Shown here: positions 6,603 to 63,242 of the stretch, in pieces
How the letters are laid out: every line of letters begins with the position of its first letter
Numbering within the stretch: position 1 is the stretch's first letter
NCBI GenBank assembly: GCA_001791275.1
Contig: MGEH01000024.1
Span: forward strand, 11,097 to 75,096
Direction: 5' to 3'
Origin: Candidatus Uhrbacteria bacterium RIFCSPHIGHO2_12_FULL_60_25
GTDB taxonomy: Bacteria; Patescibacteriota; Patescibacteriia; 2-12-FULL-60-25
Length of the DNA stretch: 64,000 nucleotides
The notes under the pieces: model-generated
Databases searched by the model: none
What the model saw: only the letters and a program-made list of their open reading frames with translations
Told to the model about the DNA's origin: nothing
Program-made: the position numbers and the translations under genes

Positions 6603-6663
6603 AATTTCTAATTTCTAATTTCTATAATAGAGTTTAGAAATTAGTCATTAGAAATTAGAAATT
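6603..6663. promoter_or_regulatory. AT-rich palindrome of heptamer arrays (TTTCTAA x3 / TTAGAAA x4) in a divergent promoter region
   Basis: 6605-6625 = TTTCTAA TTTCTAA TTTCTAT. 6634-6661 = TTAGAAA TTAGTCA TTAGAAA TTAGAAA. Lies between the divergent starts at 6599 (-) and 6717 (+). Confidence 0.5.
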
Positions 6664-17133: not shown

Positions 17134-17849
17134 TGATGCTTAGAAAATTTCTTATGGAACTGAAGCATCGCGCGACTCACACTCACCAAATTTTCCCAAC
17201 GCAATGCGGTGGACCGTCCTTGTCGTGGAAGGATACGCATAGGGACTTCTACAAACGATGCGCCTTCTCGAAGGAGCGTGAGTAGTATCTCTGCGGCATA
17301 TGCGAAACTTGGAGTTTCTGGCAATGCGCGACGAAGTTGATCGATCCGATATACATTAATCCCATTGAAGTAGCGGACACGACGATGGTACATGACATTT
17401 AATATTATCGTGAATACTCTCGAGATGAGACGTCGAAGCAACGACCGTACTTCAGGATTTTCCGTATACGTAACGACCATGTCGGCGGAACCAATCGCAC
17501 AAATGACGCGCGCGACAGATATACTGTCAATTTCATTATCTCCGGGAACCATGACCACATGATTCTTGGTCGCCGCCAAAACGGCGTTTCGATATTTTTC
17601 TCCGAGAAGCTGGTATGTAGGACTGTGAAGTACTCGAATGCGTGCGTCTGATGCCGCAAGCTCCTGTGCGATGAGCCGAGTTCGATCTTCACGCCCATCA
17701 CGATCCACGCACGTCACAATGATCATTTCATAATCCTGAATCTCCGCTTTCGTAAGAGCGCTGCGTACTCCCTGTATCGTCGCTTCAATATTACGCTCCT
17801 CATTCAATGCAGGGATGATGATACTCAAGGATATGTTCATGGCCTGCAA
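17130..17849 (-). CDS. GT2 glycosyltransferase, DPM1/GtrB-like
   Basis: 239 aa. LSIIIPALNEERNIE...VPGDNEID. Confidence 0.85.
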   Translation of the reverse strand: MQAMNISLSIIIPALNEERNIEATIQGVRSALTKAEIQDYEMIIVTCVDRDGREDRTRLIAQELAASDARIRVLHSPTYQLLGEKYRNAVLAATKNHVVMVPGDNEIDSISVARVICAIGSADMVVTYTENPEVRSLLRRLISRVFTIILNVMYHRRVRYFNGINVYRIDQLRRALPETPSFAYAAEILLTLLREGASFVEVPMRILPRQGRSTALRWENLVSVSRAMLQFHKKFSKHQ

Positions 17850-17892
17850 AGACTACAGAAGTGAGTCGCGATTGACAAGCAATATCGATCAC

Positions 17893-18396
17893 CTATCGAT
17901 CACGCTCAAGCCCAAGTGATCGAAAAAGATCTGAAGAATGGATGAGGAGCGACGGAGTGAAGATGACACGACCACCAATTGATTCCATCACTCGGATATC
18001 CTCATGAATTCCATGAGACGGATCCGCGAGCATCGGCAGATGGTCTTCCCCTTTCGTATAGAGATTCGGTCGAATGGTCCGCATGAGCGACCAGGGACCT
18101 TCTTCCTCATTTAACACTACGTAGTCAACGCTCTCGAGCGCCGCGACCCACGTGAGTCGTTGAATCTCTGAAAACCATGGCCGTCCAGGACCCTTCCTCA
18201 CATAGGCATCCGCGATCACGCCAACGTATACGAAGTCACCACGTTTTTTTGCTTCCTCGAAATAGTTCACGTGTCCCAGGTGGACCAAATCAAAAACTCC
18301 ATGGCAGTGGACGATGGTCAGGCCTTCTGCTTGAAGTGCTCGCACGATCCGTGCGAGCTCATCGGGTGTTTTAATTTTCTCAGTCGTGAAACGCAT
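17893..18396 (-). CDS. Cytidylyltransferase-fold nucleotidyltransferase (heptose-1-phosphate adenylyltransferase, HldC/RfaE domain II-like)
   Basis: 167 aa. HCHGVFDLVHLGHVNYFEEAKK (GxFDxxHxGH motif). Confidence 0.8.
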   Translation of the reverse strand: MRFTTEKIKTPDELARIVRALQAEGLTIVHCHGVFDLVHLGHVNYFEEAKKRGDFVYVGVIADAYVRKGPGRPWFSEIQRLTWVAALESVDYVVLNEEEGPWSLMRTIRPNLYTKGEDHLPMLADPSHGIHEDIRVMESIGGRVIFTPSLLIHSSDLFRSLGLERDR

Positions 18397-39260: not shown

Positions 39261-40264
39261 GCGACTTCCACGAACCGACCGTCTTCTTTGAGCGAACGCA
39301 TCGCGGTTTCGAGGATACGGATCACACGAAGTCCTGAATGCCCATCGGTCTCCGGTGCGCGTCCTTCCTTGATCGCATTGAAAAACTCGCGGATCTGGAG
39401 TTTCAGCGGTTCTTCCTGACGGATGTTCGGGATGAATGTATGACCGGTCCGCAGCGACGGGTAGGCCGGCGTGTCCTGTTCCGGATCATACGTTCCGCGA
39501 TCGTACACTTTGATCGGTTCTGCCGTGTTGATGTCATCGTACACCGCCATCTTTTTATCACCCGCCACGACCATGAGACGCTGCTTGAGCGGTGAATACC
39601 AGTTCACGTGCACGTGACCCATGAGTCCGTCGCCGTAATCGAGTGAGAGGTGGACCATGGTCTCTTGCGGAGACGTTGGATGCGGCACATGCGATGCGCC
39701 GACGGCCGCCACGCGTTTCGGCATGCGGCCGCCCAGCACCGCTTCGAAGATCGTCAGATCATGCGGCGCAAGATCCCACATCACATTCACATCCGGACGG
39801 AACAGGCCCAGATTCACGCGGACCGAGTCCATGTACCGGATCTTTCCGAGTTCGCCGGACTTCGCGAGCTCTGCCAGTGCGCGAACTTCAGGCTTGTAAT
39901 GGAACACGTGTCCCACCATGAGTCGCCGGTCTGCCTGTTCTGCGCGTGCGATCAGATCTTTCGCTTCATCAGACGTTCGTGTGAGGGGTTTTTCCACCAT
40001 CACATGGAGCCCGGCGTCGAGCGCGGCGCGTGCTAAGTCTGCGTGCGTGTGAACAGGCGTTACGATGAACGCGACGTCGTACCGGTCACTGAATACAGCG
40101 GGGGCGGACTCTGCGACGTGAGTGCGCGGATAACGCTGAACAAGTTTCTGCGCCTTCGACGCATCCAGATCGGAAATGCCGATCGACTCAACTTCCGGGA
40201 ACTCCAATAGATTCCGAACGATGTTCGGTCCCCAATACCCTGCTCCGACAACGAGGACGCGCAT
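39257..40264 (-). CDS. Gfo/Idh/MocA-family NAD(P) oxidoreductase (WbpB-like nucleotide-sugar 3-oxidase candidate)
   Basis: 335 aa. MRVLVVGAGYWGPNIVRNL and EKPL motif. Confidence 0.88.
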   Translation of the reverse strand: MRVLVVGAGYWGPNIVRNLLEFPEVESIGISDLDASKAQKLVQRYPRTHVAESAPAVFSDRYDVAFIVTPVHTHADLARAALDAGLHVMVEKPLTRTSDEAKDLIARAEQADRRLMVGHVFHYKPEVRALAELAKSGELGKIRYMDSVRVNLGLFRPDVNVMWDLAPHDLTIFEAVLGGRMPKRVAAVGASHVPHPTSPQETMVHLSLDYGDGLMGHVHVNWYSPLKQRLMVVAGDKKMAVYDDINTAEPIKVYDRGTYDPEQDTPAYPSLRTGHTFIPNIRQEEPLKLQIREFFNAIKEGRAPETDGHSGLRVIRILETAMRSLKEDGRFVEVA

Positions 40265-40386
40265 ATGATGGGTATTCCTTACATGGAAAAAACGAATACA
40301 TCAAGAGAGAACCAAAAAGGAAGACATCTTAATATTTCAAACAAGCCTGAAAAAACCGCTATAACGTTTGTAAGAAAAGCACAACA

Positions 40387-41634
40387 TCATCGATCCGGCT
40401 TGTACAGCGTAAAAAAAATATTAAACGCCTCTGCAACGTACTGAATATCAGCTTCAGTCATCCCTTGATGAGAGCCTATATAAAACCCATTTCGCTGAAT
40501 CCAATCAGCAACTGGGTAGGACGAACTAAGATCGCCAAAGCGATCACGATAAAAAGGTTGTGAAATAAGTGGAAGCATGTCACGTGTTTCAATACCTCTT
40601 GCCTCTAGATGGTTAACCAAATCAACTTTCAAATATTGATCATGAAGAATGACGATCGGAAACATCATAAAAGCATGATCAGTATCAGTTGGATGGTATG
40701 GTAATTGGAGTTCTGTTGCGTACTTACGCAGTACTTCAAGTAGTCGCAAAGCTGTTCGTTTGTGACCATCAATAATTTCAGCCTTTCTGTCCAGCTGCGC
40801 GACACCAAGCGCTCCCTCTAGCTCCGTTAGGCGATAGCTGTAACCGAGTCGTACAAAATTAAATCTCCGTTGAACGACTTCTGCCAAATGATCAGTATCT
40901 ACGGCACTTTGTCGATCATCCATGCTGAAATAAATTGAGTCCCGACCATGATTCGCGAGACTACGTAGAATGATGGCGAGATTCTTATCTTTCGTTAGGA
41001 CGATACCACCTACACCAGTTACTAGCAGATGACACATATACGTCGAGAAGCAGGCAATGTCGCCGAAGGACCCTACTGACCGACCACGATAACGTGTGAA
41101 CATCGTTTCGCATGAATCCTCGACGATACGTAATTTGTGTTTCTTTGCAATCGCTTCGATCGGCTCCATATTACATGGTTGTCCAAAAAGGTGAACGGGT
41201 ACGATTGCGCGCGTTCGATCCGTAATGTGTGCTTCTATTTTACTTGGATCGATGTTGTATGTTCGGCGGTCGACATCAACGAAAACTGGGGTAAGACCAA
41301 GCTCAATCAGCATGTTCGATGTTGCCACGAAAGTCACGGCCGGAACGATGACTTCATCACCCATTTTCCATCCATCCAATTCTTTTAATGCAGCAAACGC
41401 TATATGGAGTGCACTAGTCCCGCTGTTCACAGCTACCCCAAAAGAAACATCATGATCTCGTGCAAAACGATGTTCAAATTCTTGCAGGAAAGGACCATAG
41501 GATAAACGGCCACTGTCAAGAACCCGTAGTATATTTCTACGCTCGCGTTCACCGATGTCCAAGCAGCCAAGGCCGATTCGTATTTGTTTAATGTCGGGTG
41601 CCATACCAATAGTTCTTTGGAATACTGCATTCAA
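40387..41634 (-). CDS. DegT-family PLP/PMP enzyme with His in place of the Schiff-base Lys (ColD/E1-type 3-dehydratase-like)
   Basis: 415-aa ORF (alternative start MAPDIK). FGDIACFSTYMCHLLVTGVGG aligns to FGDMGCFSFYPTKNLGALGEGG of the 35336 gene, with K replaced by H. Visibly AT-rich. Confidence 0.8.
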   Translation of the reverse strand: MNAVFQRTIGMAPDIKQIRIGLGCLDIGERERRNILRVLDSGRLSYGPFLQEFEHRFARDHDVSFGVAVNSGTSALHIAFAALKELDGWKMGDEVIVPAVTFVATSNMLIELGLTPVFVDVDRRTYNIDPSKIEAHITDRTRAIVPVHLFGQPCNMEPIEAIAKKHKLRIVEDSCETMFTRYRGRSVGSFGDIACFSTYMCHLLVTGVGGIVLTKDKNLAIILRSLANHGRDSIYFSMDDRQSAVDTDHLAEVVQRRFNFVRLGYSYRLTELEGALGVAQLDRKAEIIDGHKRTALRLLEVLRKYATELQLPYHPTDTDHAFMMFPIVILHDQYLKVDLVNHLEARGIETRDMLPLISQPFYRDRFGDLSSSYPVADWIQRNGFYIGSHQGMTEADIQYVAEAFNIFFTLYKPDR

Positions 41635-41758
41635 ACAGATCGACGATTAGGATAGTGTACTGTCAATCGTCATTTTTTTGCAAGGAATCAAGTTTCAAGA
41701 CAAATAACCCTTGCTATTGCAGTCGTTTCCCGATACAATTCACTCAATATTAATCGAT

Positions 41759-41968
41759 ATGGCATCACGTCGTAAGAGGGTGTTGGTCGTTGGAGCCAAT
41801 GGATTCATCGGTCGAGCACTCACATCACGACTCGTCTCCCTCGGTTATCATGTTGTGGCTGCGTCTCATTCACAATGTCATGGAATCTCTGCTTCGCAAA
41901 TACGAACTGGCGACCTACGCGACGCACGCTACTGTCGGCGTATTACGAGGGATGTTGACATTATTTAA
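41759..41968 (+). pseudogene. Truncated remnant of an NAD-dependent epimerase/dehydratase (Rossmann N-terminus only)
   Basis: MASRRKRVLVVGANGFIGRALTSRLVSLGYHVV... stops after 69 codons and abuts the 3' end of the convergent AT-rich membrane gene. Confidence 0.55.
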
Positions 41969-41977
41969 ATAACAGAC

Positions 41978-43672
41978 TCAATACTTTGCATATCGTAAGA
42001 AATATGGGTAGCCCAAATTTTTTGACTTCACCGTTCCATAAAGAGTGGTCACATTCTGCGGTGACCCATTTCGAACATCACATGAAGATGCATTAATGCT
42101 GATGCAAGAGTCTACATCTTCATTTTCAGTACACGATCTGGAACAATCCGATGTTACACGCCAGATGTGTTCGATGTGCGTTTGAGGTATAGGGAGCACA
42201 TCAAAAGATGAATTTTGATAATATACGATCGGACGGAAATCTATGAAGCGATCAATCATATCCGGATGATCAATTAAAAACTGATTTCGCCGTAACGCTT
42301 TCGTATTGACATCAAGAAATTGAAAAGAGGACCTGTTCAGAGGCAGTTCGAGGTGCTTAGCGTCTATCACGATCAATTGATCAGGGGTATTGTATTTCTC
42401 GTAAAAAAACTGGTAGACCTGCATTTCTGATGATGGTGACCAAAATAACAACATGACTTTTAGTAAAATGTATATTGCAAAAATAGCAAATGGTGGAATG
42501 AACAGGGTGAGAATACTGTTGGATAAAGTTGTAAAAAGAAATAAAAAACTCATCGTGATTGCAAGACTAAAAATAATGGCATATCTCGGATATCCAATAA
42601 GTCCCGCAATTACAACATCAGTCGTGAATACAGCTACTGGATAGAGTAGACATATCAAGAGGACGATCAGCTTCCTTCGTCTTGAACCTAGTTGATGAGA
42701 GTATGGTAGTTGGACAAGATAAAATGCGAAAATAAAGAGGAAAGAAACGACAAGTACTGGGTTGCTCTCCCATAAGGTCTGGAACAGCCATACAAATCTT
42801 TTCAGCCAGTCAATTGAACCATCCGGAAACAAGTAGTCCGTCCCATTCAGACTCGTACTGGTTGCAACAGACGACGTTAAATTAAGAATTCGTTGATAGA
42901 AACTTAATTGAGTAAGTATTATCAACAAAAAAATCCCGATGTGGCATTTTAGGGCTTGTACAGTTTCAGATATTGAAATATGACCAAGCAACATTGCGAA
43001 TACCACCCAGAGAACCACATGGATCATCATTGGTACTTGTAGTATTGCAAGGAATGCCAGCCATAACAGTAATGAAATATATACTCGCTTCTCAATAAGG
43101 AGATTTTTTGTTCGCGTAATGAAGTATTCCTGAAAAAGCACAAGCCCTCCAGCGGTGAGCATGAATAATGAACCAAGAAGCCAGACTTTGCCGGTATGTA
43201 TAAGCAATACGAATAACGGATTACTGAAAAGAACAGAAAGAAATAGTGCAGCAAGTAACCCAAGTTGTTTCAATCGATTACGCGTGTATAAAAATCTAAA
43301 AAAAAGGAACAGCAACAGTAGGACACTGAGACCATTAACAACTCGTACCGTATGTAGAAGATCACCATAGTGAACTGCAAAATATCCCATTAAGATTATA
43401 GGTGGATAAAAAAAGGTTAAGTCATATACAAATCTCGTGAGGACAGCAACCGTCACGAGGTATGTTTGCACTCCACCGTAATATGCTCCGCCCACCGTAA
43501 AATCCCATCCGGGGAGCGTATGATTACTCAATGCTGATAATGCACTGCTCAAAAAATACGATTCATCAGAAATTACGGCTGTATTATCCCCAAAGGGATT
43601 CGGATTAAGAAATAATGGTGATATAAGCAACGTTACTAGGATTGGAAGTGCAGATCGAAATTTCAAAAGCAT
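41978..43672 (-). CDS. Polytopic membrane protein, GT-C-like candidate (very AT-rich)
   Basis: 564 aa with many hydrophobic segments. Early loop motif ISDESYFLSSA (DExY-like). Cys-rich C-terminal soluble region. Confidence 0.8.
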   Translation of the reverse strand: MLLKFRSALPILVTLLISPLFLNPNPFGDNTAVISDESYFLSSALSALSNHTLPGWDFTVGGAYYGGVQTYLVTVAVLTRFVYDLTFFYPPIILMGYFAVHYGDLLHTVRVVNGLSVLLLLFLFFRFLYTRNRLKQLGLLAALFLSVLFSNPLFVLLIHTGKVWLLGSLFMLTAGGLVLFQEYFITRTKNLLIEKRVYISLLLWLAFLAILQVPMMIHVVLWVVFAMLLGHISISETVQALKCHIGIFLLIILTQLSFYQRILNLTSSVATSTSLNGTDYLFPDGSIDWLKRFVWLFQTLWESNPVLVVSFLFIFAFYLVQLPYSHQLGSRRRKLIVLLICLLYPVAVFTTDVVIAGLIGYPRYAIIFSLAITMSFLFLFTTLSNSILTLFIPPFAIFAIYILLKVMLLFWSPSSEMQVYQFFYEKYNTPDQLIVIDAKHLELPLNRSSFQFLDVNTKALRRNQFLIDHPDMIDRFIDFRPIVYYQNSSFDVLPIPQTHIEHIWRVTSDCSRSCTENEDVDSCISINASSCDVRNGSPQNVTTLYGTVKSKNLGYPYFLRYAKY

Positions 43673-43699
43673 AAGTGAATGAAAGATAACAATTTCCTA

Positions 43700-44407
43700 T
43701 CACGTTTTCCAATAGAGATCTTTAAGCAAGACAAAAATAAACTTTATTCCCATTATGGTCTTTAATTTTGATTTTCCCCACGCTCTCGCCTTTTCCCGAC
43801 TCGGAATTTCTACCAATCGACACTGCTTCTTTAAACATTTCACAACCATTTCCTGTTCAATGCAAAAATCATTCGACTTCAATCCTAAACTATGGAATGT
43901 CGATTTTTTTACGGCTCTAAAACTATACAGAATATCACTCAATTGAATTTTGAAACGTTGATTTACCAAAACAGTTAAGAAATCAGATCCGGCTGAACGG
44001 ATAATCCCTGTTAGACTCATATCTAGATCGTGACTTCCGCCAAGTCGCCTTGAAGTAATCACCATGTCCGCGGTCTCATCGATCAGCGGCTTGATGAGCT
44101 GTGGGATATCGCTGGCTTCATGCGATCCATCGGCATCAAAAAATACAATGATATTACCTGAGGCCGCTTCAACACCCATACGGACTGCATCCCCTCTGCC
44201 GAGACCATGATCGAGTAAGTATTTCGCTCCCTGCTCCAAGGTAATGTATCGGGTGTTGTCTTTCGAGTGGCCATCAACAACGATGACTTCGTCTGCATAA
44301 GGTTTAACCGATTCAATTATTTTTTTTATTCCTGCTCCTTCGTCTTTTGTTGGAATGACGATTGATATCCCGATATGATCGCTCATATTGCCGATGCTTC
44401 TAGTCAC
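43700..44407 (-). CDS. GT2 glycosyltransferase, DPM1/GtrB-like
   Basis: 235 aa. ISIVIPTKDEGAGIKKII...VVDGHSKDNT...FDADGSH. Confidence 0.85.
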   Translation of the reverse strand: MTRSIGNMSDHIGISIVIPTKDEGAGIKKIIESVKPYADEVIVVDGHSKDNTRYITLEQGAKYLLDHGLGRGDAVRMGVEAASGNIIVFFDADGSHEASDIPQLIKPLIDETADMVITSRRLGGSHDLDMSLTGIIRSAGSDFLTVLVNQRFKIQLSDILYSFRAVKKSTFHSLGLKSNDFCIEQEMVVKCLKKQCRLVEIPSREKARAWGKSKLKTIMGIKFIFVLLKDLYWKT

Positions 44408-45624: not shown

Positions 45625-47697
45625 ATGCCCGTTTTTTCCGCCGCCGTCAAACCCCCGGGATGGCTCGGTTATGCGGCTTTCCGCTTGACCATGGGCGTGT
45701 ATGAGCCTAGTCTGCATGTCATGTCCCCCTTCGCTGTCGCTCCGGGGGACGCGTGGAGCATGATGACACCGAAGGAACCCCGTCCCACGAAGCCCCGCAT
45801 ATTGCGGGGCGAAGTGGAATGGTGGCTCGGCGCGCCCATCGCGGTCGCACTCCTGACCTGGGGGCCGTATTGGGTCCGGAATCTCGCGATCGGACGCAAA
45901 GACTGGACTCGCATCCCGGCGCTCGCGGCGACCGTGTTTGACCTCACGGCCTATCTGCAACCGATCGGGCAAGCGATGACGGGTGTCGTGACCGCACATC
46001 TCATCGGTCCTTTCGCGCTGCTCATGCGTCTCATCGCGCTCACGTTCCCGAACGCGAGCGTGCCCGAAGCCTGGTTTGTGGCACGATGGATGGCGACGAC
46101 CGCGGCGCTGTTTGTATTCGCATGGTGCCTTGAGCGCTGGTCCGGAGTGGGTCGTAACATGGCGCGCCTGCTGTCGCTCTCATTCTGGATCGCGTTCATC
46201 CTCGTGCTCGGCATGAAACCCGGATTCGCCTCGTGGCTGTTCCCGTTTGGTGTGCTTGGGATGGTCGGTGTGACCATCGTTGGTGAGCGTCTCACAAAGC
46301 GACGGATCATTTCCGCGATCGTGTGGTCTGCCATCGCACTCACAAGTTCCTCGCTCTATGCCTGGTACTTTTTATTCGTTGCCGTGTGGCTCGGCGTGAC
46401 CTGGTTCCTCTGGCTCGTAAAAAATACTCCACGCGTCGCACTCTCGCTCGCCGCGATCGGGTCCGTATCCGCTTGCGTATTCGCCGTCGTGTTCGCCTAC
46501 TGGATCACGCTCACTCCCGCAGGCATCGTCTGGATCGAACTGACCCAACGCCTGTCATTGAGCTACACGCACATGATCTTCATCTCGGGATCCGTGCTGC
46601 TCACGATGCTCTGGACCGTTCTCTTCGGAGCAATCTATGCGGTCGCGAGTTCGGACGATCGACCAAAGATCGAGGTGACGGGCATTGCCTGGCTCTCGCT
46701 CCTCTTCACCTTCTTCCACTCCCCGTTCACCGGCCACTACATCCAGAACGATCACTTCCGAAGCGCCGCCGCGATCCTTTCCTGGTTCGCCCTCGCCGTC
46801 ATCTGGTCTCTCGTTCATCAAAGTCCGACGACGCACGACGCACGACGCACCCGTTTCATCCCCTATCTCACCCTCTTCATCTCCCTCGCCTACGTGATCC
46901 GCATCCTCGCCGCCCCCTATGCCTGGAACCGTGACTTCTTGAACGTGCTTCAACTCACGCACTGGTTCGCACTGCTCATCGCATCATGGCTCGCGATTCG
47001 ATGGATGCAAGGAAAGAAACCGCTCGAGACAAAGACGTTCGCGACCATCGTCCTTTCCGGATCACTCCTGATCGGAGGCAACGCAATGGCAGCGACCTAC
47101 TTCTATGAATTCAAAGACCTTCCAAAGATCGAAGCGCTCATACCCGTCTTCAACTGGGTGAAAGCGAATGTGCCACCAGGAATCTCAATCTGTACAGGCC
47201 AGGGAGGAGAAGGATTTAATATCGATGACATGTTGGCCGCTCAGACAGGACGTGTAGTGCATTTCTCACATACCACCATGTACCACAAAGAACGAGACGT
47301 AGCTCTTCTTGACAGGCTACGTGTTATTTCCGGTTTTTTTGATGCGGGAACGGCTGGTGATCAAGTAAACTGGCAGCTCTTGAGCTCAGAAAACCAATTC
47401 ATCGTCTGTGCTCAGTATCCCGTGCAGGTGAAGCTGTTCCATGCACTCGGTCTCTCTGAAGATCGTATTGATGCGCTCATCGGCTGTCCTCGAAAGACGA
47501 TCGATGCACGCTGGGCGTATGTGAAGGATGCGATGGATCACCCGATCCGAGACATGGAAGCGTTCAAGCGTGTGTGTCCATTTGTCGTCGTCCCGAACGC
47601 AAAAAAATCGTATTGGCATTTGCCGGATGACTATCGTGAAATCCCTGTGACGAACGAGATATACGTGTTTGCATCTATATCAACCGATCTTCGATGA
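45625..47697 (+). CDS. Large polytopic membrane protein, paralogue 3 of the unnamed family
   Basis: 690-aa ORF. By comparison with the paralogues, the start is likelier at 45721 or 45760. VFDLTAYL, PFTGHYIQNDHF and the conserved C-terminal Cys positions are present. Confidence 0.85.
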   Translation: MPVFSAAVKPPGWLGYAAFRLTMGVYEPSLHVMSPFAVAPGDAWSMMTPKEPRPTKPRILRGEVEWWLGAPIAVALLTWGPYWVRNLAIGRKDWTRIPALAATVFDLTAYLQPIGQAMTGVVTAHLIGPFALLMRLIALTFPNASVPEAWFVARWMATTAALFVFAWCLERWSGVGRNMARLLSLSFWIAFILVLGMKPGFASWLFPFGVLGMVGVTIVGERLTKRRIISAIVWSAIALTSSSLYAWYFLFVAVWLGVTWFLWLVKNTPRVALSLAAIGSVSACVFAVVFAYWITLTPAGIVWIELTQRLSLSYTHMIFISGSVLLTMLWTVLFGAIYAVASSDDRPKIEVTGIAWLSLLFTFFHSPFTGHYIQNDHFRSAAAILSWFALAVIWSLVHQSPTTHDARRTRFIPYLTLFISLAYVIRILAAPYAWNRDFLNVLQLTHWFALLIASWLAIRWMQGKKPLETKTFATIVLSGSLLIGGNAMAATYFYEFKDLPKIEALIPVFNWVKANVPPGISICTGQGGEGFNIDDMLAAQTGRVVHFSHTTMYHKERDVALLDRLRVISGFFDAGTAGDQVNWQLLSSENQFIVCAQYPVQVKLFHALGLSEDRIDALIGCPRKTIDARWAYVKDAMDHPIRDMEAFKRVCPFVVVPNAKKSYWHLPDDYREIPVTNEIYVFASISTDLR
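46830..46850. repeat. (GACGCAC)x3 perfect heptamer tract in-frame in the membrane-protein gene
   Basis: Read directly. Encodes part of TTHDARRT, in the loop homologous to the tract at 10803-10865. Confidence 0.8.
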
Positions 47698-52368: not shown

Positions 52369-53516
52369 ACTCTGTGAACGCGACGTTGAAGCGACGCAAC
52401 CCATTCAAGGATTCTCCTGGAACGCTCCGACCAGGTGTATCGCGCGCTTAACGCGAGCGCAGCCGCCGCCTTGGCGCGCGCTTCATCCGGACGATCCATG
52501 GCGCGCACGATCTGGAGCGCGAGCGTGTTGACATCACCGGGCAAGGCGAAAAACGCCGACCGTTCATCCACGATCTCGCGGACCGAGGGCAGGTCCGTCA
52601 CGACCATCGGCACGCCGCTCATGAGATACTCAAAGAGCTTTAGCGGAGACATGTACAACGCGTAATGTTCCGTATGCGGAAACGGCATGAGGAGCAGGTC
52701 TGCGGCGGCATAGAACCGCTTCAGATCCGCTTGCGGAACATGCCCGCGCAGTTCAGTCCCGTCCTGGACACGGGGACGGTACCGCGCGATCTCTTCCGGC
52801 GTCCCGCCGACGGCGATCAGCCGGAGCTTCCGTTGTTTGCCGCGAAGATGCGCGACAGCCACAATCGCCTCATCCAGACCCTTCGGCATGCCCATGGTGA
52901 GAAACTTCCCGGTATAGAGACAGACGAATTCGCCATCCGGAATGCCGAGCGCGCGCCGTGCCGAAACGCGATCAGGCGCGCCTGCAAACAACGCTGGATC
53001 GACCGCGTCTGGTTCCACGAGGATCCGGTCGGACGGAAACCCGAACGACGAAAGGCGTTCTTTTGACGCGCGCGTGAGTGTCACGATCGCATCCATCGTG
53101 CGCATGGCGCGACGGCCGAACCACGACGAGTGGACACGGTGCGATTCCCATACGCGAAGCCCTGGAACGTCGCCGAATGAAAAAACGTACGGTTCGCGGC
53201 TGTACACGAGGTCGGGTCGGTATGTGAGCAGCCGGGGACGAAGCGCTCGGATGAACGTCGCCGTCTGAATCCAAAATCCAAGCGCGCCGAGCCAATGCCA
53301 ACGGAGCGCGTCGGCGCACGGCACGCGCTCGAACACGAATGTTTTCGGCTTGTCGTAATAGGCAAACGGATCATCCGCGACCACGGGCGTGCGATCCGTA
53401 ACATACAGGCGCACCTCATGACCGAGCGCCGCAAACGCCGAACACACGGCCATCACCTGGTCGCTCTGCGCTTTTTCCGACGGGAAACGGCTGTTTGCGA
53501 TGTAGGCGATTTTCAT
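52365..53516 (-). CDS. GT4 glycosyltransferase
   Basis: 383 aa. MKIAYIANSRFPSEKA, with a C-terminal SPLKLFEYLMSGVPMVVTD region. Confidence 0.88.
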   Translation of the reverse strand: MKIAYIANSRFPSEKAQSDQVMAVCSAFAALGHEVRLYVTDRTPVVADDPFAYYDKPKTFVFERVPCADALRWHWLGALGFWIQTATFIRALRPRLLTYRPDLVYSREPYVFSFGDVPGLRVWESHRVHSSWFGRRAMRTMDAIVTLTRASKERLSSFGFPSDRILVEPDAVDPALFAGAPDRVSARRALGIPDGEFVCLYTGKFLTMGMPKGLDEAIVAVAHLRGKQRKLRLIAVGGTPEEIARYRPRVQDGTELRGHVPQADLKRFYAAADLLLMPFPHTEHYALYMSPLKLFEYLMSGVPMVVTDLPSVREIVDERSAFFALPGDVNTLALQIVRAMDRPDEARAKAAAALALSARYTWSERSRRILEWVASLQRRVHRV

Positions 53517-56059
53517 ATCTTTTTCTTACGTCGCAATCGGTCCCAAATGACGACGAGCGCCATCGCCGCCAGAATCGCGAGCAGATTATCCAACGGAATC
53601 CGGTACTTCGTGTACCCAGCGATGATGGAATGCAACGCGGAATACACCGCAAAGACGATCAGGATCGGGACGATAACCCCGAACATCTTCCGTCGCTTCG
53701 CGAGGACGAGTCCGGCGAGCGTCAAGACTTCAAGTGCGAAGACGTACCCAGCGAGCGACCAGCGCGCCGCCATGATTTTCCAGCCCGCGTCCGCGAATGA
53801 CCATTGCGCGCCGTATTTCAACCCAGGCTGAAGCATCGGTGACCAGAACCCGGCGACCTTCAACGCCTGCAACTTCCATCCTTCAGACCAGTAGTTTTGC
53901 TTCAACCAATCCATCCCAACCTTCGTCCAGTAGTCGTTGAACTCCGGCTCGCTCATCGCTCCAGTATCCTTGCACGATGTCCGACTGTCACCAGGTTCAT
54001 GAGGATGCCACTCGGTGAACAGTCGTGACGGTTTGAGCCAACCCCGTTCGCGAAGCGCCGCTTCGACTTCCGGCAGCATCACGTACCGCACCTCCTGCGG
54101 GTTGTCCGGATTGAACACGCGCTCGCTCGTCTGCACTTCCTGCGGGAATCCGAGGACCGTGAGACCGTACATATTTTCGCTGTTCGCCTTGGCCAAGGCA
54201 TGTCCCAAATCCGTAGTCAGCGGCACGAACCGGTGGAACGCCTGCCAGTTCCGGTACGTCCACGGCGCAATGAGCGCGGCCGAGACGATCCCCATGATCG
54301 CGATCGCGAGCACTGCGCGCTTCACGTCCTTTCGCCAGCGCCACAAAAGCCATGCGGACAAAAGGACGGTCGCGGGCAGAATCGTCCCTTGGACGTACGC
54401 CAACGCCGCGATCCAAACGCCGGTCCCGACGGCCCATCGCATTCGCTTCGTCTCTTCGAGACGCAGCAGACTGAAGAGCAGCGTCACGAGGAACAAGCCG
54501 GACAGCACCGTGTGGTAGTACTGCGTGTAGTGATAGAAGGTGTACGGATGGATGGCGGTCAGAACCGCCGCGACGAGACCGACTCGACGGTCTTTCGTGA
54601 GCGCCCAGCCCAGGCGGTAGACCATGTACGTGAGAAGGACGGCCAGAGCGTTTTGGACGACTGCCTGCGCAAAGAAATTCGCAAACCCGAACAACCCGTA
54701 CACTCCCGTCAAGAAAAACAAAAAGCCGGGCGAACGGTACGCCGACACGCACCCGACGTCCTGCACGAACGAGTAGCCGTATCCCAGGAACCAATTCTGC
54801 ACGAGGGTGAAGAATCCCCACTCGCGATTCGCACCAAGCGTCTTCCAGAAAAGCGCCACGGACAGGCCTCGCACGAGAACCGCGAATCCGATCACCCCCG
54901 CCGTCCACATCCATACACGACGGCCGGGAACCGGGAACGGGGAACCGAGAACCGTCCATGCAGCGTGCTGCCGACGGACGAGCTCCCCAGCATCAGGAAA
55001 CTCCTTCGATCTCTCATACGCATTCTTCACCATCCACTCGCGGCGCTCTGACTCCGACAGTTGCTCGCGAATCGCCGCGACGAGCCCCGCGATATCATTA
55101 GGTTGGACGACACGACCATCTATTTGCGGCCTGAAAAACGATCCCACGCACCCCACATCCGTCGTCACGATCGGCACGCGCGCGGCCATTGCTTCCACGA
55201 TCGTCCTCCCCCACCCTTCATATCGGGAAGACAGAACGAACAGGTCAGCACCGCGCCACAGGTCTTCCTGTGAAGACCAAGGCTCGATCGTGACGATATC
55301 ACTCAGCTTGAGATCATGAATAAGCCGTTCGACGGCTCGCCGGAGCGGTCCTGCGCCGACAAGTCGCGCTCGAAAATCGACACCTTGCTCACGAAGCGAC
55401 GCGAGCGCACGGACGAGCACATCCAGCCCCTTCTGCTTCACGAACCGGCACGGCGCCACGATCGTCGGCGCCTTGGACCAAGGCTTTGGTTCTCGCGAGA
55501 GAAGACCCGTCAGGTTCTGCGCAACCGGAATAACGCTGATGCGGTCGGCCGCGACGTGACATCGCCGGACCAGATGATCGCGTACCCGCTCACTCACGAC
55601 CCTCACGCCGTCCGCGCGGCGCAGGAAGAACTTTCCCCACCCGGCCATGACTTCGTGAAAAAACGGCAATTCGCGCTCCCACGCGCCCGAATAGTAGTCC
55701 GCGTGCTCCTGGACCTCGTACGGAACGTCGAGCAGCCGTGAGACGAGAAAAGCGACGAAACCGGCCGCGAACGGATCTTGCGCCGTGATGATCGGCGTCT
55801 CGCCGGTCTTGCGCGCTCGCCTGACCGCCCGCATGACGGCGACGGTTGCTTTCCACACGCGGACGATTGCATTGCCGCGAAAACCGTACACGCACGTCTG
55901 CGAATCTCCGCGCTCCGCGTTCTGATGCGCGTTCGCGAGCAACACCGCGGTCACGCGGACGTCGTCTGACGCGAGAGCCGCGAGACGGCCCGAAGATTCT
56001 GACGCCGGATCCAGGAATCCGCGCTCGTACGACAGCATGATGATGCGGAGCGGCTTCAT
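53513..56059 (-). CDS. Fusion: GT4 glycosyltransferase (N, ~385 aa) + GT-C/PMT_2-like polytopic membrane domain (C, ~460 aa)
   Basis: 848 aa. N-terminal part has YEGWGRTIVEAMAARVPIVTTDVG. The C-terminal part has many TM segments. The domain junction is encoded by the heptamer tract (SPFPVPGR). Confidence 0.88.
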   Translation of the reverse strand: MKPLRIIMLSYERGFLDPASESSGRLAALASDDVRVTAVLLANAHQNAERGDSQTCVYGFRGNAIVRVWKATVAVMRAVRRARKTGETPIITAQDPFAAGFVAFLVSRLLDVPYEVQEHADYYSGAWERELPFFHEVMAGWGKFFLRRADGVRVVSERVRDHLVRRCHVAADRISVIPVAQNLTGLLSREPKPWSKAPTIVAPCRFVKQKGLDVLVRALASLREQGVDFRARLVGAGPLRRAVERLIHDLKLSDIVTIEPWSSQEDLWRGADLFVLSSRYEGWGRTIVEAMAARVPIVTTDVGCVGSFFRPQIDGRVVQPNDIAGLVAAIREQLSESERREWMVKNAYERSKEFPDAGELVRRQHAAWTVLGSPFPVPGRRVWMWTAGVIGFAVLVRGLSVALFWKTLGANREWGFFTLVQNWFLGYGYSFVQDVGCVSAYRSPGFLFFLTGVYGLFGFANFFAQAVVQNALAVLLTYMVYRLGWALTKDRRVGLVAAVLTAIHPYTFYHYTQYYHTVLSGLFLVTLLFSLLRLEETKRMRWAVGTGVWIAALAYVQGTILPATVLLSAWLLWRWRKDVKRAVLAIAIMGIVSAALIAPWTYRNWQAFHRFVPLTTDLGHALAKANSENMYGLTVLGFPQEVQTSERVFNPDNPQEVRYVMLPEVEAALRERGWLKPSRLFTEWHPHEPGDSRTSCKDTGAMSEPEFNDYWTKVGMDWLKQNYWSEGWKLQALKVAGFWSPMLQPGLKYGAQWSFADAGWKIMAARWSLAGYVFALEVLTLAGLVLAKRRKMFGVIVPILIVFAVYSALHSIIAGYTKYRIPLDNLLAILAAMALVVIWDRLRRKKKI
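54926..54953. repeat. Four GGGAACC-type heptamers at the GT4/GT-C domain junction
   Basis: GGGAACC GGGAACG GGGAACC GAGAACC read directly on the plus strand. The gene is on the minus strand, so the coding strand reads GGTTCCC-type units. Confidence 0.75.
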
Positions 56060-57219
56060 AGATTCAGGGCTTCCAGCGTCTTCTTCACCATGGTCTCAAA
56101 TCGCAACGCGTCCGGCACGGCCGGCGTCGTCCGTTCAGGCCATGGTCCTGACAGGGCGGTACGCCATGCGCCGACGTCACCATACGGCAAGACGCGCACG
56201 AGCTCGCCCAAGAGCTCGCGCGTCTCCGGGTTCCCGCCCTTGTCGCTCACGAAGCTCGGCAGACCCACGGACGCGGCCTCGGGCACCACGTGCGGGAAGC
56301 CTTCGTATCCGGACGGAAGGACGAACAGGTCGGCCGCGCGGTACCAGTCCGCGAGCGCCGTGCGGTCGAGTCTGCCGACAAACCGCACTCGGTCACCGAC
56401 GCCCCGTTCAGACGCGAGTTTTTTCCAGTCGTCCAACGATGGCCCGTCGCCTGCGACTACTAAGACGACGTCGCTGGGCAGGTCGGACATGATCCCGATG
56501 ATAAAATCCACGCCTTTCCAAGGCACGCATCGCACCGCCGTGAGCATCACGCGCTTACCCTCGATGTTGAGTCGCATCGTCGAAGAGGGCAGCGGTTCTG
56601 CCGCATTGTAAATGACGCGAATGCGTCCTTCCGGCACGCCCCATGCCTTCACGACAGACGCGAGATACCGGCTCGGCACGATCATGCGGATCGCCCGTTT
56701 CGCCGTCCATCGCTCGATCCATTCCAAGACGCGGACCGTCCCCACATGCCGATGCGTCAAAAATTCATCCAACAATTCTTTTCGTCCGGTTCCCGGTTCC
56801 CCGTTCCCGGTTCCCCGTTCCCGGTTCCCGGCTTCCCGTTCCCCGTTCCCGGTTCCCTGATACATCTCCCATGCATAATCCCCAACCACCTTCATCACCG
56901 TGGATTTGCCAGCGAGCATCGCACCGATCGTGCCTGGCAGACCCTCCGAGACAGGCCCTTGAAGATAAACGACGTCAACGAGCCGTGCTCTGCGACGTAC
57001 GGTATCCGCAAACTTCCAATATCGTGCCAAAATGTTGCGATTGCGTCCGATCCGTTCAACCGGATATCCGTCCACGTGCTCAATCCCGTCTTTCTCGCCG
57101 TATGCGACCACCTGCACTTCGTGCTCTGAAGACAACGCTGCCCGAGCAAAGGCCCGGGTGTATGTGGCAGGTCCGCCTGCGTCCGGCGGATAGATGCCAG
57201 TTGCAAGAAGTATCTTCAT
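56056..57219 (-). CDS. GT4 glycosyltransferase carrying a repeat-encoded insertion
   Basis: 387 aa. MKILLATGIYPPDAGGPA and YEGFPHVVPEAASVGLPSFVSD. Contains an internal QGTGNGEREAGNRERGTGNGEPGTGRK segment. Confidence 0.9.
   Translation of the reverse strand: MKILLATGIYPPDAGGPATYTRAFARAALSSEHEVQVVAYGEKDGIEHVDGYPVERIGRNRNILARYWKFADTVRRRARLVDVVYLQGPVSEGLPGTIGAMLAGKSTVMKVVGDYAWEMYQGTGNGEREAGNRERGTGNGEPGTGRKELLDEFLTHRHVGTVRVLEWIERWTAKRAIRMIVPSRYLASVVKAWGVPEGRIRVIYNAAEPLPSSTMRLNIEGKRVMLTAVRCVPWKGVDFIIGIMSDLPSDVVLVVAGDGPSLDDWKKLASERGVGDRVRFVGRLDRTALADWYRAADLFVLPSGYEGFPHVVPEAASVGLPSFVSDKGGNPETRELLGELVRVLPYGDVGAWRTALSGPWPERTTPAVPDALRFETMVKKTLEALNL
56788..56857. repeat. Ten tandem GGTTCCC-type heptamers in-frame within the GT4 gene
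   Basis: GGTTCCC GGTTCCC CGTTCCC GGTTCCC CGTTCCC GGTTCCC GGCTTCC CGTTCCC CGTTCCC GGTTCCC, read directly. Confidence 0.9.
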
Positions 57220-60030: not shown

Positions 60031-61935
60031 CTACATCGACGGGCGTCCGTAGCGCGAGAGCCAGATGGAGAGCGCAAGCAGCATCCAGAGCCGATTCCCG
60101 TGATTCGTGCCGCGCGTATTTTCGTCGAACAGGCGCTGGACGGCCGGGAGCTGCACGTACGCCGCGAGCGGCCCTTTCGGGTCGATGCACCGTTCGCGCC
60201 AATAGCCATTCAGAGGGCCCCGGAACCAGTCTGCGAGCGGCACCTGGAATCCACGCTTTTTTCGGCTCAACACAGCGCTGGGAACGATGCCACGCAAAGC
60301 GCGTTTCAGTGCGACTTTCGTCTTACCATGATGCACCTTCTCGTTCAACGGGAGGCGGAGCGCGTAGGCCACGAGGTACTGGTCCAAAAACGGGGCGCGC
60401 GCTTCCAGCCCATACGCCATGGTGGCGCGATCCATCTTCACGTTCAGATCGTCGGGAAGATAGCTCATGAGATCGAAACGCAAGGCGCGAGCCAATGGCT
60501 CGCCGTCAGTCCCCATCTGCTTCGCGATGAACGCCGCGGGGTCATCGCCAGACGTCTGCTCTAAAAAATCGTGATGGAAGACCCCGGCCGCCTGCGTTGA
60601 TGAGAAGTATGAACCGCAGAAGAGCTCGGCATAGGCGCGATTCGGATCGCGCTTTGCCCAAGGCGCCGCATCGGCCACGCGGATGAATCGCGGATCATTG
60701 AACTCCGTACCGACGATGCGCGCGAGCGGCGGAGCGATGCTCCGGAACCCCGGAATCGCGGCGAGGCGGAGCGCGCGATCAAACGCGACGTACCTTCGAT
60801 ACCCGCCGAACGTCTCATCTCCTCCGTCCCCCGTGAGCACCACCTTGATCTGCTGCGACGCTTGCTCCGAAAGAAGCATGAGCGGCAGCGATGACGAGTC
60901 CGCGTACGGCGCGTCGTACTGATTGATGACGTACTCGGCGACGCGGGCGAGATCGTCCGGTTTCGCTTCGAACTCGAGGTGATCCGTATGGAATGCCGTC
61001 GCGATCTCGCGCGCCTCCGCGCGTTCGTCCATGCCGATATTCGGGAATCCCATCGTAAATGTACGCAATGGACGGTCGAGATGCTTTACGGCCAACGCGA
61101 CGACAGCCGCGGAGTCCACGCCTCCCGAGAGAAACGCGCCAACGGGGACATCCGCCTGCAATCGAATCTTCACGGCGTCATCAAGAAGCGACACGATGTC
61201 ACGCGATACGTCGCCGCTCGCGCTGACCGGGATGCTGGCCCAGTCGTGGTACGACTCGATGCGCACGCCGTTCGCATCCGCGTATCCGCGGTGACCCTGC
61301 GGAACGCCGACGATTTCCCGGAATCCCGTGCGCGGCGGCGGCACGTACTGCAGTCCGATGAATTGGCGCAACGCCGCGGGATCGATCGTGACAGGTTCAA
61401 GCGGGATGAGCGCCTTGAGCTCGGATGCGAACGCGAACGATCCGTTTGTGAGGACGCGGTAAAAAAACGGCTTCTTCCCGATCCGGTCGCGCGCGAAGAA
61501 GAGACGGCGCGTCGTGGCGTCCCAGATCACGAACGCGAACATCCCGCGAAGGCGTTTCACGGAGTCCTCTCCCCAGCGACGGTACGCTTCGAGGATCACC
61601 TCGGTGTCTGACGTCGATCGAAATGTCGAGCCGAGCCGTGAGAGCTCCTCACGCAACTCGCGGAAGTTATAAATTTCGCCGTTGTAGACTATGGTGAATC
61701 TTCCATCCGGCGCCTGCCCTCCGAAGCCCGAAGGGCGTAGGAGGGTCATCGGTTGCGCGGCGAGTGGCGACAAGTCCACGATGGCGAGCCGTCGGTGGCC
61801 CAAACCGACGCCTGGCTTGATCCAGACTCCCTCACCATCACGTCCGCGGTACGGGATCGCATCCATCATGCGCCGAATCAACCCCTCGTCCGGAGGAGAT
61901 CCGTCGCGCGTGACGATACCTGCAATGCCGCACAT
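60031..61935 (-). CDS. Asparagine synthase (glutamine-hydrolysing)-family amidotransferase, copy 2
   Basis: Start taken at MCGIAGIV (61935). [13 protein letters not shown]-loop. Confidence 0.92.
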
Positions 61936-61943
61936 ATAGATAA

Positions 61944-62004
61944 GTGCTTGGGTGCTTGAGTGCGAGAGACCCTCGTGCACTCAAGCACTCAAGCACTCAA
62001 GCAC
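61944..62004. promoter_or_regulatory. Palindrome of octamer arrays (TTGAGTGC-type x2.5 / GCACTCAA x3.5) in a divergent promoter region
   Basis: 61944-61963 = GTGC TTGGGTGC TTGAGTGC. 61977-62004 = GCACTCAA GCACTCAA GCACTCAA GCAC. Lies between the divergent starts at 61935 (-) and 62055 (+). Confidence 0.5.
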
Positions 62005-62054
62005 ATTATCCGTAGTTGCTATTTGTGACGAACCTCTCTACTCTAGCCTCAACC

Positions 62055-63242
62055 ATGGGAAATTCCAAGCGTCTCCTCATCGTCGTGACCCAGGCAGAAT
62101 GGGGTGGCGTTCAGGGCTATGTTGCGCGCTGCGCCGCGGAGGCGAAACGACGCGGATTCGAGGTGCTTGTCGCCGCGGGAGGGACAGGCGAGCTTGAGTC
62201 CCGTTGTCTCAATAACGGCATCCCCTATCGCCGCCTGTCACGGCTTCGACGAGACATCTCACCCTTCGCGGACGTATCTGCAATCCGGGAGCTCGTCGCG
62301 CTCATGCGAGAGTGGCGACCGGACGTTGTGTACCTCCACAGCTCAAAAGCTGGCATCATCGGGAGCATTGCCGCGCGCATCGCAAAGGTCCCGCGCGTCG
62401 TGTACCGCATCGGCGGGTGGTCGTTTCTGGACCCGGTCTCGCCGTTGCAAAAGATCATCCGACGCTGGAGCGAGAAACTGACCGCGGGAATGAAAGACGT
62501 CATCATCACGGTCCACCCCGGAGACGAGGAGCTCGCGCGACGCGTGGGCATCCGGCCGCGCGAGGCGCTCGTAACCGTTGCAAATGGGATTGACCTCAAT
62601 GCGTTCGACGCAAACCTGCTGTCTCGCGATGATGCACGCGCACTACTGCGCGGACTCTGGCGCGAGGGTGTCCCTTCCCACGCGTCCATGGATGAACACG
62701 ATCAACTTGTCCTGACCGTGGCAAATTTTTATCCTGCAAAAAACCTGATCGGATATCTGGATGCGGTGAAGCTCATCAACAAAGAACGACCACGGACTCG
62801 TTTCCTGATCATCGGCGACGGAGAGAGTCGGACCCAGCTCCAGACAGAACGTGCAGCGCTTGGTCTCGACGCGATCGTCTCCCTCCCAGGTAAACGCGAC
62901 GACGCGGCATCACTCCTCCAAGGCGCCGACGCCTTCGTCCTGCCGTCGGTCAAGGAAGGAATGTCATGGGCCGTCCTCGAAGCCATGGCCGCGTCACTCC
63001 CATGCGTTGTGACGGACGTGGGCGCGAACCGATGGATGGCGGAAGACGCGTGCGCCGTGGTCCCTCCGCGCGACCACCAGGCGCTCGCGCATGCGATCCT
63101 TCGGCTCCTCGACGACAAAACCGCCGCGGACAGGTCGGGAGCGCGAGCGCGAAACGTCATCGAACGACGATTCACGGATCGCGCGATGTGGGATGCAACG
63201 TTCAACGCACTCTTACCGCCTGGGACCACTGCCGCCGTTTGA
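62055..63242 (+). CDS. GT4 glycosyltransferase
   Basis: Start taken at MGNSKRLLIVVTQAEWGGVQGYV. EGMSWAVLEAMAASLPCVVTDVG. Confidence 0.9.
   Translation: MGNSKRLLIVVTQAEWGGVQGYVARCAAEAKRRGFEVLVAAGGTGELESRCLNNGIPYRRLSRLRRDISPFADVSAIRELVALMREWRPDVVYLHSSKAGIIGSIAARIAKVPRVVYRIGGWSFLDPVSPLQKIIRRWSEKLTAGMKDVIITVHPGDEELARRVGIRPREALVTVANGIDLNAFDANLLSRDDARALLRGLWREGVPSHASMDEHDQLVLTVANFYPAKNLIGYLDAVKLINKERPRTRFLIIGDGESRTQLQTERAALGLDAIVSLPGKRDDAASLLQGADAFVLPSVKEGMSWAVLEAMAASLPCVVTDVGANRWMAEDACAVVPPRDHQALAHAILRLLDDKTAADRSGARARNVIERRFTDRAMWDATFNALLPPGTTAAV

Follow-up and report, generated by a model that had tools for sequence, protein, structure and literature searches.

A GT4 glycosyltransferase gene of Candidatus Uhrbacteria bacterium RIFCSPHIGHO2_12_FULL_60_25 carries, in frame and on its coding strand, a tract of ten head-to-tail heptamers of the form GGGAAC[C/G] (here the focal tract), which we analysed within the surrounding 64,000 nucleotides of contig MGEH01000024.1 (the window). 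Arrays of this GGGAAC[C/G] unit make up a family dispersed in the genome, of which the tract is one member, within a wider phenomenon of heptamer repeats in bacteria. We consider it probable that this copy is a simple sequence repeat (SSR) born by slippage from one native unit, tolerated in a permissive loop of the enzyme, now decaying, and fixed in the population.

The focal tract occupies codons 122-144 of its host gene, between the motifs GDYAWE (residues 113-118) and LLDEF (149-153). In an alignment of 32 orthologues both motifs are invariant or nearly so, and what lies between differs from protein to protein in length and sequence. Over a larger set of 119 orthologues this stretch measures 9-13 residues in 90, exactly nine of them in 20 proteins, and at least 14 in 29; in the window protein it measures 30, which bears out an earlier note on this DNA in placing the repeat where the family usually has a short loop. 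Removing nine of the ten units leaves the codons CAG GGA ACC GGA CGA AAA and gives MYQGTGRKE ahead of LLDEF, a loop of nine residues, and QGT stands at the equivalent loop position in the orthologues P0018 and P0041 as well. Because the sequence collapses in this way to a loop of normal length with native QGT codons, the tract is most simply read as one native heptamer grown to ten. The resemblance to a decayed slippage product that the earlier note had pointed to is strengthened both by this collapse and by the imperfection of the tract, whereas its figure of ~25 aa for the insertion was too high, the net gain relative to the orthologues being about 19-21 aa (nine units, 63 nt). That note had also called for a structure prediction. 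In our AlphaFold2 model residues ~121-150 are the only poorly defined part of the protein, with block means of 62, 41 and 60 in predicted local distance difference test score (pLDDT) and values below 50 at residues 131-144, against a mean of 89; the stretch encoded by the tract is thus modelled with low confidence and is probably a disordered surface loop.

The 70 nt of the tract read on the forward strand, in order, GGTTCCC twice, CGTTCCC, GGTTCCC, CGTTCCC, GGTTCCC, GGCTTCC, CGTTCCC twice and GGTTCCC; on the coding strand the same units are GGGAACC, GGGAACG twice, GGAAGCC, GGGAACC, GGGAACG, GGGAACC, GGGAACG and GGGAACC twice. The ten in-frame tandem heptamers described in the earlier note, with the translation quoted there, are confirmed by the sequence, by Tandem Repeats Finder (TRF) and by the intact open reading frame (ORF), and the one displaced unit, GGCTTCC, lies where the tract is scrambled (56830-56836). 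TRF delimits the array at 56786-56857 (period 7, 10.3 copies, score 107), making it the top-scoring array of the window. It had been described as the longest uninterrupted tract: the longest array it is, but uninterrupted it is not, since C and G alternate at unit position 7 and perfect period-7 runs therefore reach at most 16 nt, against 34 nt at 1296-1329, the longest perfect heptamer run of the window. A 14-nt repeat describes the focal tract better. The 13-mer GGGAACSGGGAAC, a two-unit probe allowed at most one mismatch, finds 20 matches in the window where shuffles lead one to expect 0.27, and with more than the three head-to-tail 7-nt units that define a heptameric SSR, far beyond chance, the tract is one. 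Across it the ORF at 56056..57219 (minus strand) reads ...VVGDYAWEMYQGTGNGEREAGNRERGTGNGEPGTGRKELLDEFLTHRH..., and the resulting peptide is GTGNGEREAGNRERGTGNGEPGT, inside the loop QGTGNGEREAGNRERGTGNGEPGTGRK. The unit is free of stops in all six frames, and the sequence, read directly, gives one cyclic heptapeptide in each of the sense frames, since seven codons span three heptamers; this heptapeptide is hydrophilic and rich in Gly, Asn, Glu, Arg, Pro and Thr.

That the host gene encodes a GT4 glycosyltransferase, as the earlier note had it, is supported by its domains and by its predicted fold. Membership of the family calls for an N-terminal Glyco_trans_4_4 or Glyco_transf_4 domain and a C-terminal Glycos_transf_1 domain above the gathering thresholds, and the 387-aa protein scores 54.6 bits for Glyco_trans_4_4 (cut-off 29.7) and 93.4 bits for Glycos_transf_1 (cut-off 26.4). 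The AlphaFold2 model, built with 32 orthologues (pLDDT 89.2; predicted template-modelling score, pTM, 0.86), has the two Rossmann domains of a predicted GT-B fold like that of solved GT4 enzymes, and its top Foldseek matches are BshA, MshA, sucrose-phosphate synthase and HepE, with E about 1e-17. The glutamates of the EX7E motif, E306 and E314 (YEGFPHVVPEA), are invariant among the 32 orthologues. Two metagenome-assembled genomes of Candidatus Uhrbacteria, recovered from the Rifle aquifer in the RIFCSP series, contain entries that are 100% identical to the protein. Of the two NCBI records, one starts the enzyme at an internal GTG, giving 353 aa (MQVVAYGE...) without the part encoded by 57117-57219; the 387-aa call is correct, because the shorter one drops the N-terminus MKILLATGIYPPDAGGPATYT, which is conserved in all orthologues. 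The stop of the host gene shares 4 nt with the start of the next gene (53513..56059), and the whole 64-kb window is a glycan-biosynthesis cluster.

Thirteen contigs encode exactly this 387-aa protein; they belong to two NCBI genomes and to JGI and ENA assemblies that cover several samples (at least four), all represent one aquifer population, and were compared as assembly consensus. Over 8.9-18 kb, five of the 13 loci match the window at 100% or 99.99% identity, a span that takes in both the focal tract and the array at 54924-54954. Length variants were sought in the 90%-identity protein cluster and none was present, the cluster holding the same sequence under two start calls only; apart from the identical copies, the collections searched contained no relative closer than 78% identity, and a scan of metagenome contigs with the host protein returned distant relatives only (30-39% identity). 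Unit number differs between the copies within the window, from 4.4 to 10.3, and shows no difference between assemblies of this population. The earlier note had expected the tract to be the best place to look for unit-number variation, an expectation that fits poorly with 13 identical contigs and an imperfect tract, a cleaner substrate being available at 1296-1329; a fixed tract length in all strains, which it had itself named as speaking against the idea, is what is seen at consensus level in the 13 contigs and in the five loci compared.

The same loop has acquired heptamer arrays elsewhere. In the DNA of seven long-loop orthologues from other Patescibacteria, six have tandem heptamers in this loop, each with a unit of its own (Table 1), and the seventh, P0015 (locus L138), has no clear heptamer array in its long loop. 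Among the long orthologue loops, with that of the window excluded, residue identity is 0.147 at a lag of seven residues, 0.107 at a lag of nine and 0.04-0.075 at other lags. On a neighbour-joining tree of the 119 orthologues the distribution of long and short loops needs at least 14 changes, fewer than with shuffled labels (mean 26, minimum 20), which indicates that gains and losses of the loop were many but partly clustered. In the orthologues P0057 and P0050, 62% identical to each other, a CCAAAT[T/A] array stands at one and the same end of the loop; either an array can be retained over time, or a unit that the genome favours can arise anew.

This preference for seven extends beyond the loop. 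We counted perfect arrays of at least three units in 147 kb, comprising the 64-kb window and 83 kb of other Patescibacteria loci, all of them glycan clusters: there are 14 at period 7 (four in the window, ten in the other loci) and 0-1 at periods 5, 6 and 8-12, with none in shuffles. Arrays in these genomes are mostly of 3-5 units, and a unit may be reused within a genome, as is CCAAATT at two loci in L137. At locus L136 the gene of the GT4 orthologue P0072 (GCA_014728435.1, 3502-4679) contains three heptamer arrays (3663-3689, 3861-3895 and 4577-4605), two of which share a unit (CGTACAT, a rotation of ATCGTAC) that recurs as its reverse complement at 347-374.

Table 1. Positions of the focal tract, its host gene and other heptamer arrays in the window, and heptamer units in the homologous loop of orthologues from other Patescibacteria.
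Feature	Position or locus	Strand	Unit and copies	Basis
Host gene, intact 387-aa GT4 (GT-B) glycosyltransferase	56056..57219	-		ORF, Pfam, fold
Focal tract, head-to-tail heptamers, 70 nt	56788-56857	- (coding strand)	GGGAAC[C/G], ten units	sequence, TRF
Longest perfect periodic stretch of focal tract, period 14, 41 nt	56789-56829	-	GGGAACC GGGAACG, 2.9 copies	
Scrambled unit, seventh on + strand	56830-56836	-	GGCTTCC (+), GGAAGCC (coding)	sequence
Downstream overlapping gene, 848-aa GT4 + PMT_2 fusion	53513..56059	-		ORF, Pfam
In-frame array, G-rich strand antisense to 848-aa fusion gene	54924-54954	+	GGGAAC[C/G], 4.4 units	
Hairpin left arm	1232-1265	+	GGGAACC/GGAAACC, 4.9 units	TRF, pattern search
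Hairpin right arm, oriented to its ORF like focal tract	1282-1339	-	GGGAAC[C/G], 8.3 units	
In-frame array, loop of 645-aa membrane protein	10803-10862	-	CCCCAGT / TTTCCCAGTCCCCG (+ strand)	
In-frame array, loop of 690-aa membrane protein	46828-46850	+	ACGACGC, 3.3 units	
Loop of orthologue P0002 (75% identical)	L126		GGCAGTC, 3.6 units	
Loop of orthologue P0018	L127		GAGAGGC, 4 units	
Loop of orthologue P0057	L128/L129		ACATTGA/ACATGGA, 5 units; CCAAATT/CCAAATA, 4 units	
Loop of orthologue P0087	L135		AATTAAG, about 6 units	
Loop of orthologue P0072	L136		CGAACTN, 4-5 units	
Loop of orthologue P0050	L137		CAATAAT; TCCAAAT, 4.7 units	

The GGGAAC[C/G] unit forms four arrays in the 64 kb, two per strand, so that one unit recurs at several loci and in both orientations; besides the focal tract, the pattern search places them at 1233-1265 (plus strand), 1282-1336 (minus strand) and 54926-54952 (plus strand). 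Two of these arrays are the arms of a periodic-arm hairpin at 1232-1339 (RNA fold -96.9 kcal/mol, z -9.2). A DUF2304 gene ends on one side of this hairpin (stop at 1339-1341), and on the other lies the conserved start of a GT2 gene (VVDVIVVTWN, with a possible GTG at 1232-1230). The earlier note, which drew the hairpin at 1233-1336, was right that its right arm repeats the unit of the focal tract and does so in the same orientation relative to its ORF; this arm also contains the longest perfect run mentioned above. The longest ORF at the GT2 gene begins at an ATG at 1346 and would translate both arms. The array at 54924-54954 is translated on the opposite strand as SPFPVPG, in the linker that leads from the GT4 domain of the 848-aa fusion to its PMT_2 domain, and the other in-frame arrays of the window likewise sit in linkers or loops. 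Two of them belong to paralogous membrane proteins of 645 and 690 aa (30% identical, without a Pfam match), where they occupy the same aligned loop with unrelated units, a parallel to the GT4 loop of the orthologues. The unit in the first of these, CCCCAGT, we take to be that of STRR1 of the cyanobacterial STRR family (short tandemly repeated repetitive sequences).

Further repeats and compositional features were noted in the same glycan cluster. An AT-rich inverted heptamer pair at 6603-6663, AATTTCT x3.1 facing AGAAATT x4.3, lies within the 117-nt divergent gap between a Peptidase_S8 gene (4740-6599, minus strand) and a Bac_transf sugar-transferase gene (6717-8096, plus strand), and could be an operator or promoter structure. 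An inverted octamer pair at 61943-62004, AGTGCTTG x2.6 facing GCACTCAA x3.5, repeats the design of the periodic-arm hairpin with an 8-nt unit, at the point where an asparagine-synthase-like gene (60031-61980, minus strand) and a GT4 gene (62016-63242, plus strand) diverge. The GC content, about 0.60 elsewhere, falls to 0.46 at 16001-18000 and to 0.38-0.46 at 40001-44000; these low-GC islands hold a GT2 gene, a DegT-type aminotransferase gene and Pfam-less ORFs of 619 and 564 aa, which suggests horizontally acquired cassettes.

Outside this genome the pattern (GGGAACS)x3 occurs at 119 loci or more in species-representative genomes, and the matches listed come from Gemmatimonadota, Lysobacterales, Cyanobacteria, Planctomycetota, Chloroflexota, Acidobacteriota, Streptomyces and others. 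Among them the pattern is found especially in Gemmatimonadota, Lysobacterales (Rhodanobacter, Dyella and Pseudoxanthomonas), Cyanobacteria, Phycisphaerae and Chloroflexota. These listed matches make up 146 arrays of 3-14 units, with 13 inverted pairs less than 200 nt apart that resemble the window hairpin, and include no Uhrbacteria contig. The focal tract thus has a place in a known class, that of dispersed heptameric long SSRs of the G-rich GGGNNNN type, represented by GGGAATC in Xanthomonas and GGGGA(C/T)T in Nostoc and described as the GGGNATC type (Rehm et al. 2015, PMC4692102). Like those repeats (PMC4692102) it consists of head-to-tail 7-nt units, each with a G3 tract and a 4-nt spacer, and in both cases one unit is scattered on both strands, in copies that range from 2-3 to more than ten units with a peak near four, some of them intragenic; the focal unit is moreover abundant, among the matches listed, in Lysobacterales (relatives of Xanthomonas) and in Cyanobacteria. 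The published repeats differ in being described in large genomes and in being mainly intergenic and poorly represented on the coding strand, the latter a tendency of the class rather than a requirement; the focal copy is unusual for its class in that it belongs to a Patescibacteria genome and runs in frame along the coding strand of an enzyme gene. A further difference is that the related Patescibacteria loci hold many kinds of unit, including AT-rich ones without the capacity to form G-quadruplexes (G4). Heptanucleotides are the commonest bacterial long SSRs, for which polymerase slippage has been tentatively proposed (Mrazek 2007, as summarised in PMC4679880), and the cyanobacterial STRRs, of which three tandem heptanucleotides are reported in Calothrix PCC 7601 in the account cited by PMC4692102, resemble the window arrays in being tandem heptamer families dispersed in a genome; they are described as mostly non-coding, and the present host is not a cyanobacterium. 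In the literature searched we found no paper linking heptamer repeats to Patescibacteria.

Two other known systems invite comparison. The contingency loci of Haemophilus, Neisseria and Campylobacter are, like the focal tract, non-triplet SSRs in or near a surface-glycan or adhesin gene in which a change of one unit switches the frame, and a heptanucleotide example is HMW1A of H. influenzae (PMC8262952). They have long perfect tracts that are polymorphic in populations, unlike the focal tract, which is imperfect and identical in the 13 assemblies. Selfish mini-insertions offer another parallel: the Rickettsia palindromic elements (RPE), reportedly described by Ogata and colleagues in 2000, and the small dispersed repeats (SDR) of cyanobacteria, reportedly treated by Elhai and colleagues in 2008, are said to insert into the loops of proteins without breaking the frame. 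The focal tract shares with RPE and SDR the placing of short repeated DNA in frame in a surface loop of a conserved protein without destroying that protein; it differs from such defined, non-tandem elements with characteristic ends or palindromes in being purely tandem, with a native first unit.

Were the tract a contingency locus, adding or removing one or two heptamers, or one 14-mer, would switch off the GT4 enzyme and possibly the translationally coupled downstream genes, and an episymbiont pressed by phages or by its host would thereby vary its surface glycan. The architecture that such switching needs is indeed present: the repeat is in frame with a unit that is not a multiple of three, and when one or two units are gained or lost the host gene meets stops at codons 147-159 and the protein is truncated, whereas a change of three units stays in frame. 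A surface-glycan glycosyltransferase gene in a 64-kb glycan cluster is of the class in which SSR switching is classic, it overlaps the next gene by the 4 nt noted above, and several neighbouring glycan genes have heptamer arrays. We nevertheless judge this reading unlikely, given that no length variant, and no pair of ON and OFF alleles, appears in 13 contigs from several samples or in the five loci compared (at consensus level), the 90% cluster being this one sequence under two start calls, that the tract is interrupted (16 nt perfect at period 7; 41 nt and 2.9 copies at period 14) where established switches use long perfect tracts, that most arrays in these genomes have only 3-5 units, and that this one lies mid-gene in a loop and not near the 5' end. 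In favour of switching one may also count a related sequence, a database protein of 225 aa (P0017) with a deletion starting in the tract and the only variant to show a breakpoint there, although it has no DNA record and we treat it as an anecdote. P0017 corresponds to ~56676-56876 of the window; it begins at an out-of-frame ATG (gene nt 344), runs in the +1 frame over units one to four and into the fifth (344-400) and resumes at PSRYL (gene nt 544), which amounts to a 143-nt deletion with its left end within the tract; there are four substitutions as well. Either a disrupted allele of a related strain or an artefact may lie behind it.

The other explanations concern how the repeat arrived and what it might do. 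A unit-specific process of insertion or copying, by a very small mobile or templated element in the manner of RPE or SDR, would account for an identical unit at four window loci in both orientations, and it agrees with the reuse of units at several loci in other genomes, with the occurrence of GGGAAC[C/G] in many phyla and with the recurrence of inverted array pairs (13 within 200 nt in the 146 arrays among the matches listed). It is nonetheless doubtful here: the tract is made of pure tandem units, with no element termini, palindrome, target-site duplication or non-repeat core to mark something inserted whole, its first unit is the native loop codons for QGTG, with QGT in P0018 and P0041 too, and the units at this loop are wholly different between lineages. 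A mobile mini-element in the strict sense we reject for its lack of termini. If the ten sense-strand G3 tracts instead folded into G4, in the mRNA or in the non-template DNA, they might modulate transcription or translation of the operon or the stability of its mRNA. The G3N4 motif is present ten times, such a role has been proposed before for GGGNATC repeats, and related G-rich heptamer units from Xanthomonas and Nostoc form G4 in vitro (PMC4692102); the minimum-energy fold given by ViennaRNA holds two three-layer G4s (-33.5 kcal/mol against -31.1 without them), and the same unit forms the very stable hairpin upstream of the GT2 gene. That gain of 2.4 kcal/mol is small, however, and does not exceed the scatter seen among shuffles (mean -21.5, sd 6.4, minimum -52), and the neighbouring gene has the unit in the opposite orientation. 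The orthologue loops use AATTAAG, CCAAATT, ACATTGA and CGAACTA, which are AT-rich or without G-tracts and cannot form G4, so that G4 is not the shared feature of the site, and we regard a role of this kind as quite improbable. Selection for the protein feature itself, a hydrophilic and flexible tether close to the face with which the N-terminal domain binds its acceptor, one that might serve, for example, an interaction with the membrane or a partner, draws on the long loops of 29 of the 119 orthologues with their 14 or more gain and loss events, on a position four residues past the invariant GDYAWE, and on the CCAAAT[T/A] array kept here in two orthologues that are only 62% identical. The extension is absent from most orthologues, however, and the long-loop sequences are mutually unrelated, their composition following the DNA unit (acidic and Gly-rich here; Asn-, Ile- and Lys-rich in AT-rich genomes); with a model that predicts no structure in this stretch, we hold such selection to be very unlikely. 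Finally, with a metagenome-assembled genome as the source and repeats being prone to errors of assembly, an artefact of short reads would be conceivable, were it not that the tract, at 70 nt, is shorter than a read, that the ORF is intact and in frame, and that independent assemblies from different assemblers and samples (JGI, ENA k141, NCBI) have identical sequence; an artefact we therefore reject, at a probability close to nil.

We thus favour the expansion of a native unit by slippage. The starting point would have been a single heptamer GGGAACC within the codons CAG GGA ACC GG (Q-G-T-G), which replication slippage in place would have multiplied from one to ten units, adding 63 nt or 21 codons, at a site that appears structurally permissive, a predicted surface loop of the N-terminal Rossmann domain. 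The insertion may have survived because the unit is stop-free, because nine added units preserve the frame and because a hydrophilic, disordered heptapeptide would be tolerated; the tract would now be degenerating, though stable at the level of the population consensus, and most likely has no function of its own. Several points weigh against this account. Local slippage leaves unexplained why one unit stands at four separate loci of the window, and other genomes likewise reuse their units (CCAAATT twice in L137; CGTACAT/ATCGTAC and its reverse complement in L136). Nor does it explain the preference, inside genes, for period 7 over the frame-neutral periods 6 and 9, or the heptamer arrays of six orthologues in this same loop. 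Neutrality is assumed, the 13 contigs represent one aquifer population, and the focal tract lies on the coding strand of an ORF, where G-rich repeats are under-represented (Rehm et al., PMC4692102). The period-7 bias in genes, the reuse of units at separate loci and the recurrence in homologous loops are accounted for by none of the explanations considered.

Taken alone, the tract is an ordinary, tolerated repeat expansion. It is also a clean and datable case of a 7-nt repeat making protein sequence, with 21 new residues beside an invariant motif. In these small genomes tandem arrays are almost all heptamers, each genome has its favoured units, and orthologous and paralogous loops have been hit repeatedly, which bears on the old question of what makes bacteria prefer repeats of 7 nt and how one unit comes to be spread through a genome. 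It is tempting, though decidedly speculative, to suppose that Patescibacteria possess a repeat generator specific to period 7 (a polymerase footprint, repair or templated copying) that seeds and homogenises genome-specific units. As three heptamers make seven codons, such a generator would, in one lineage after another, place new disordered heptapeptide loops at the same permissive sites of envelope-glycan enzymes and membrane proteins, and occasional frame-switching would provide these ultra-small episymbionts with an inherent means of varying or inactivating surface-glycan genes. Should unit numbers prove to differ between reads, bacteria of the candidate phyla radiation would have in these arrays their first described contingency loci.

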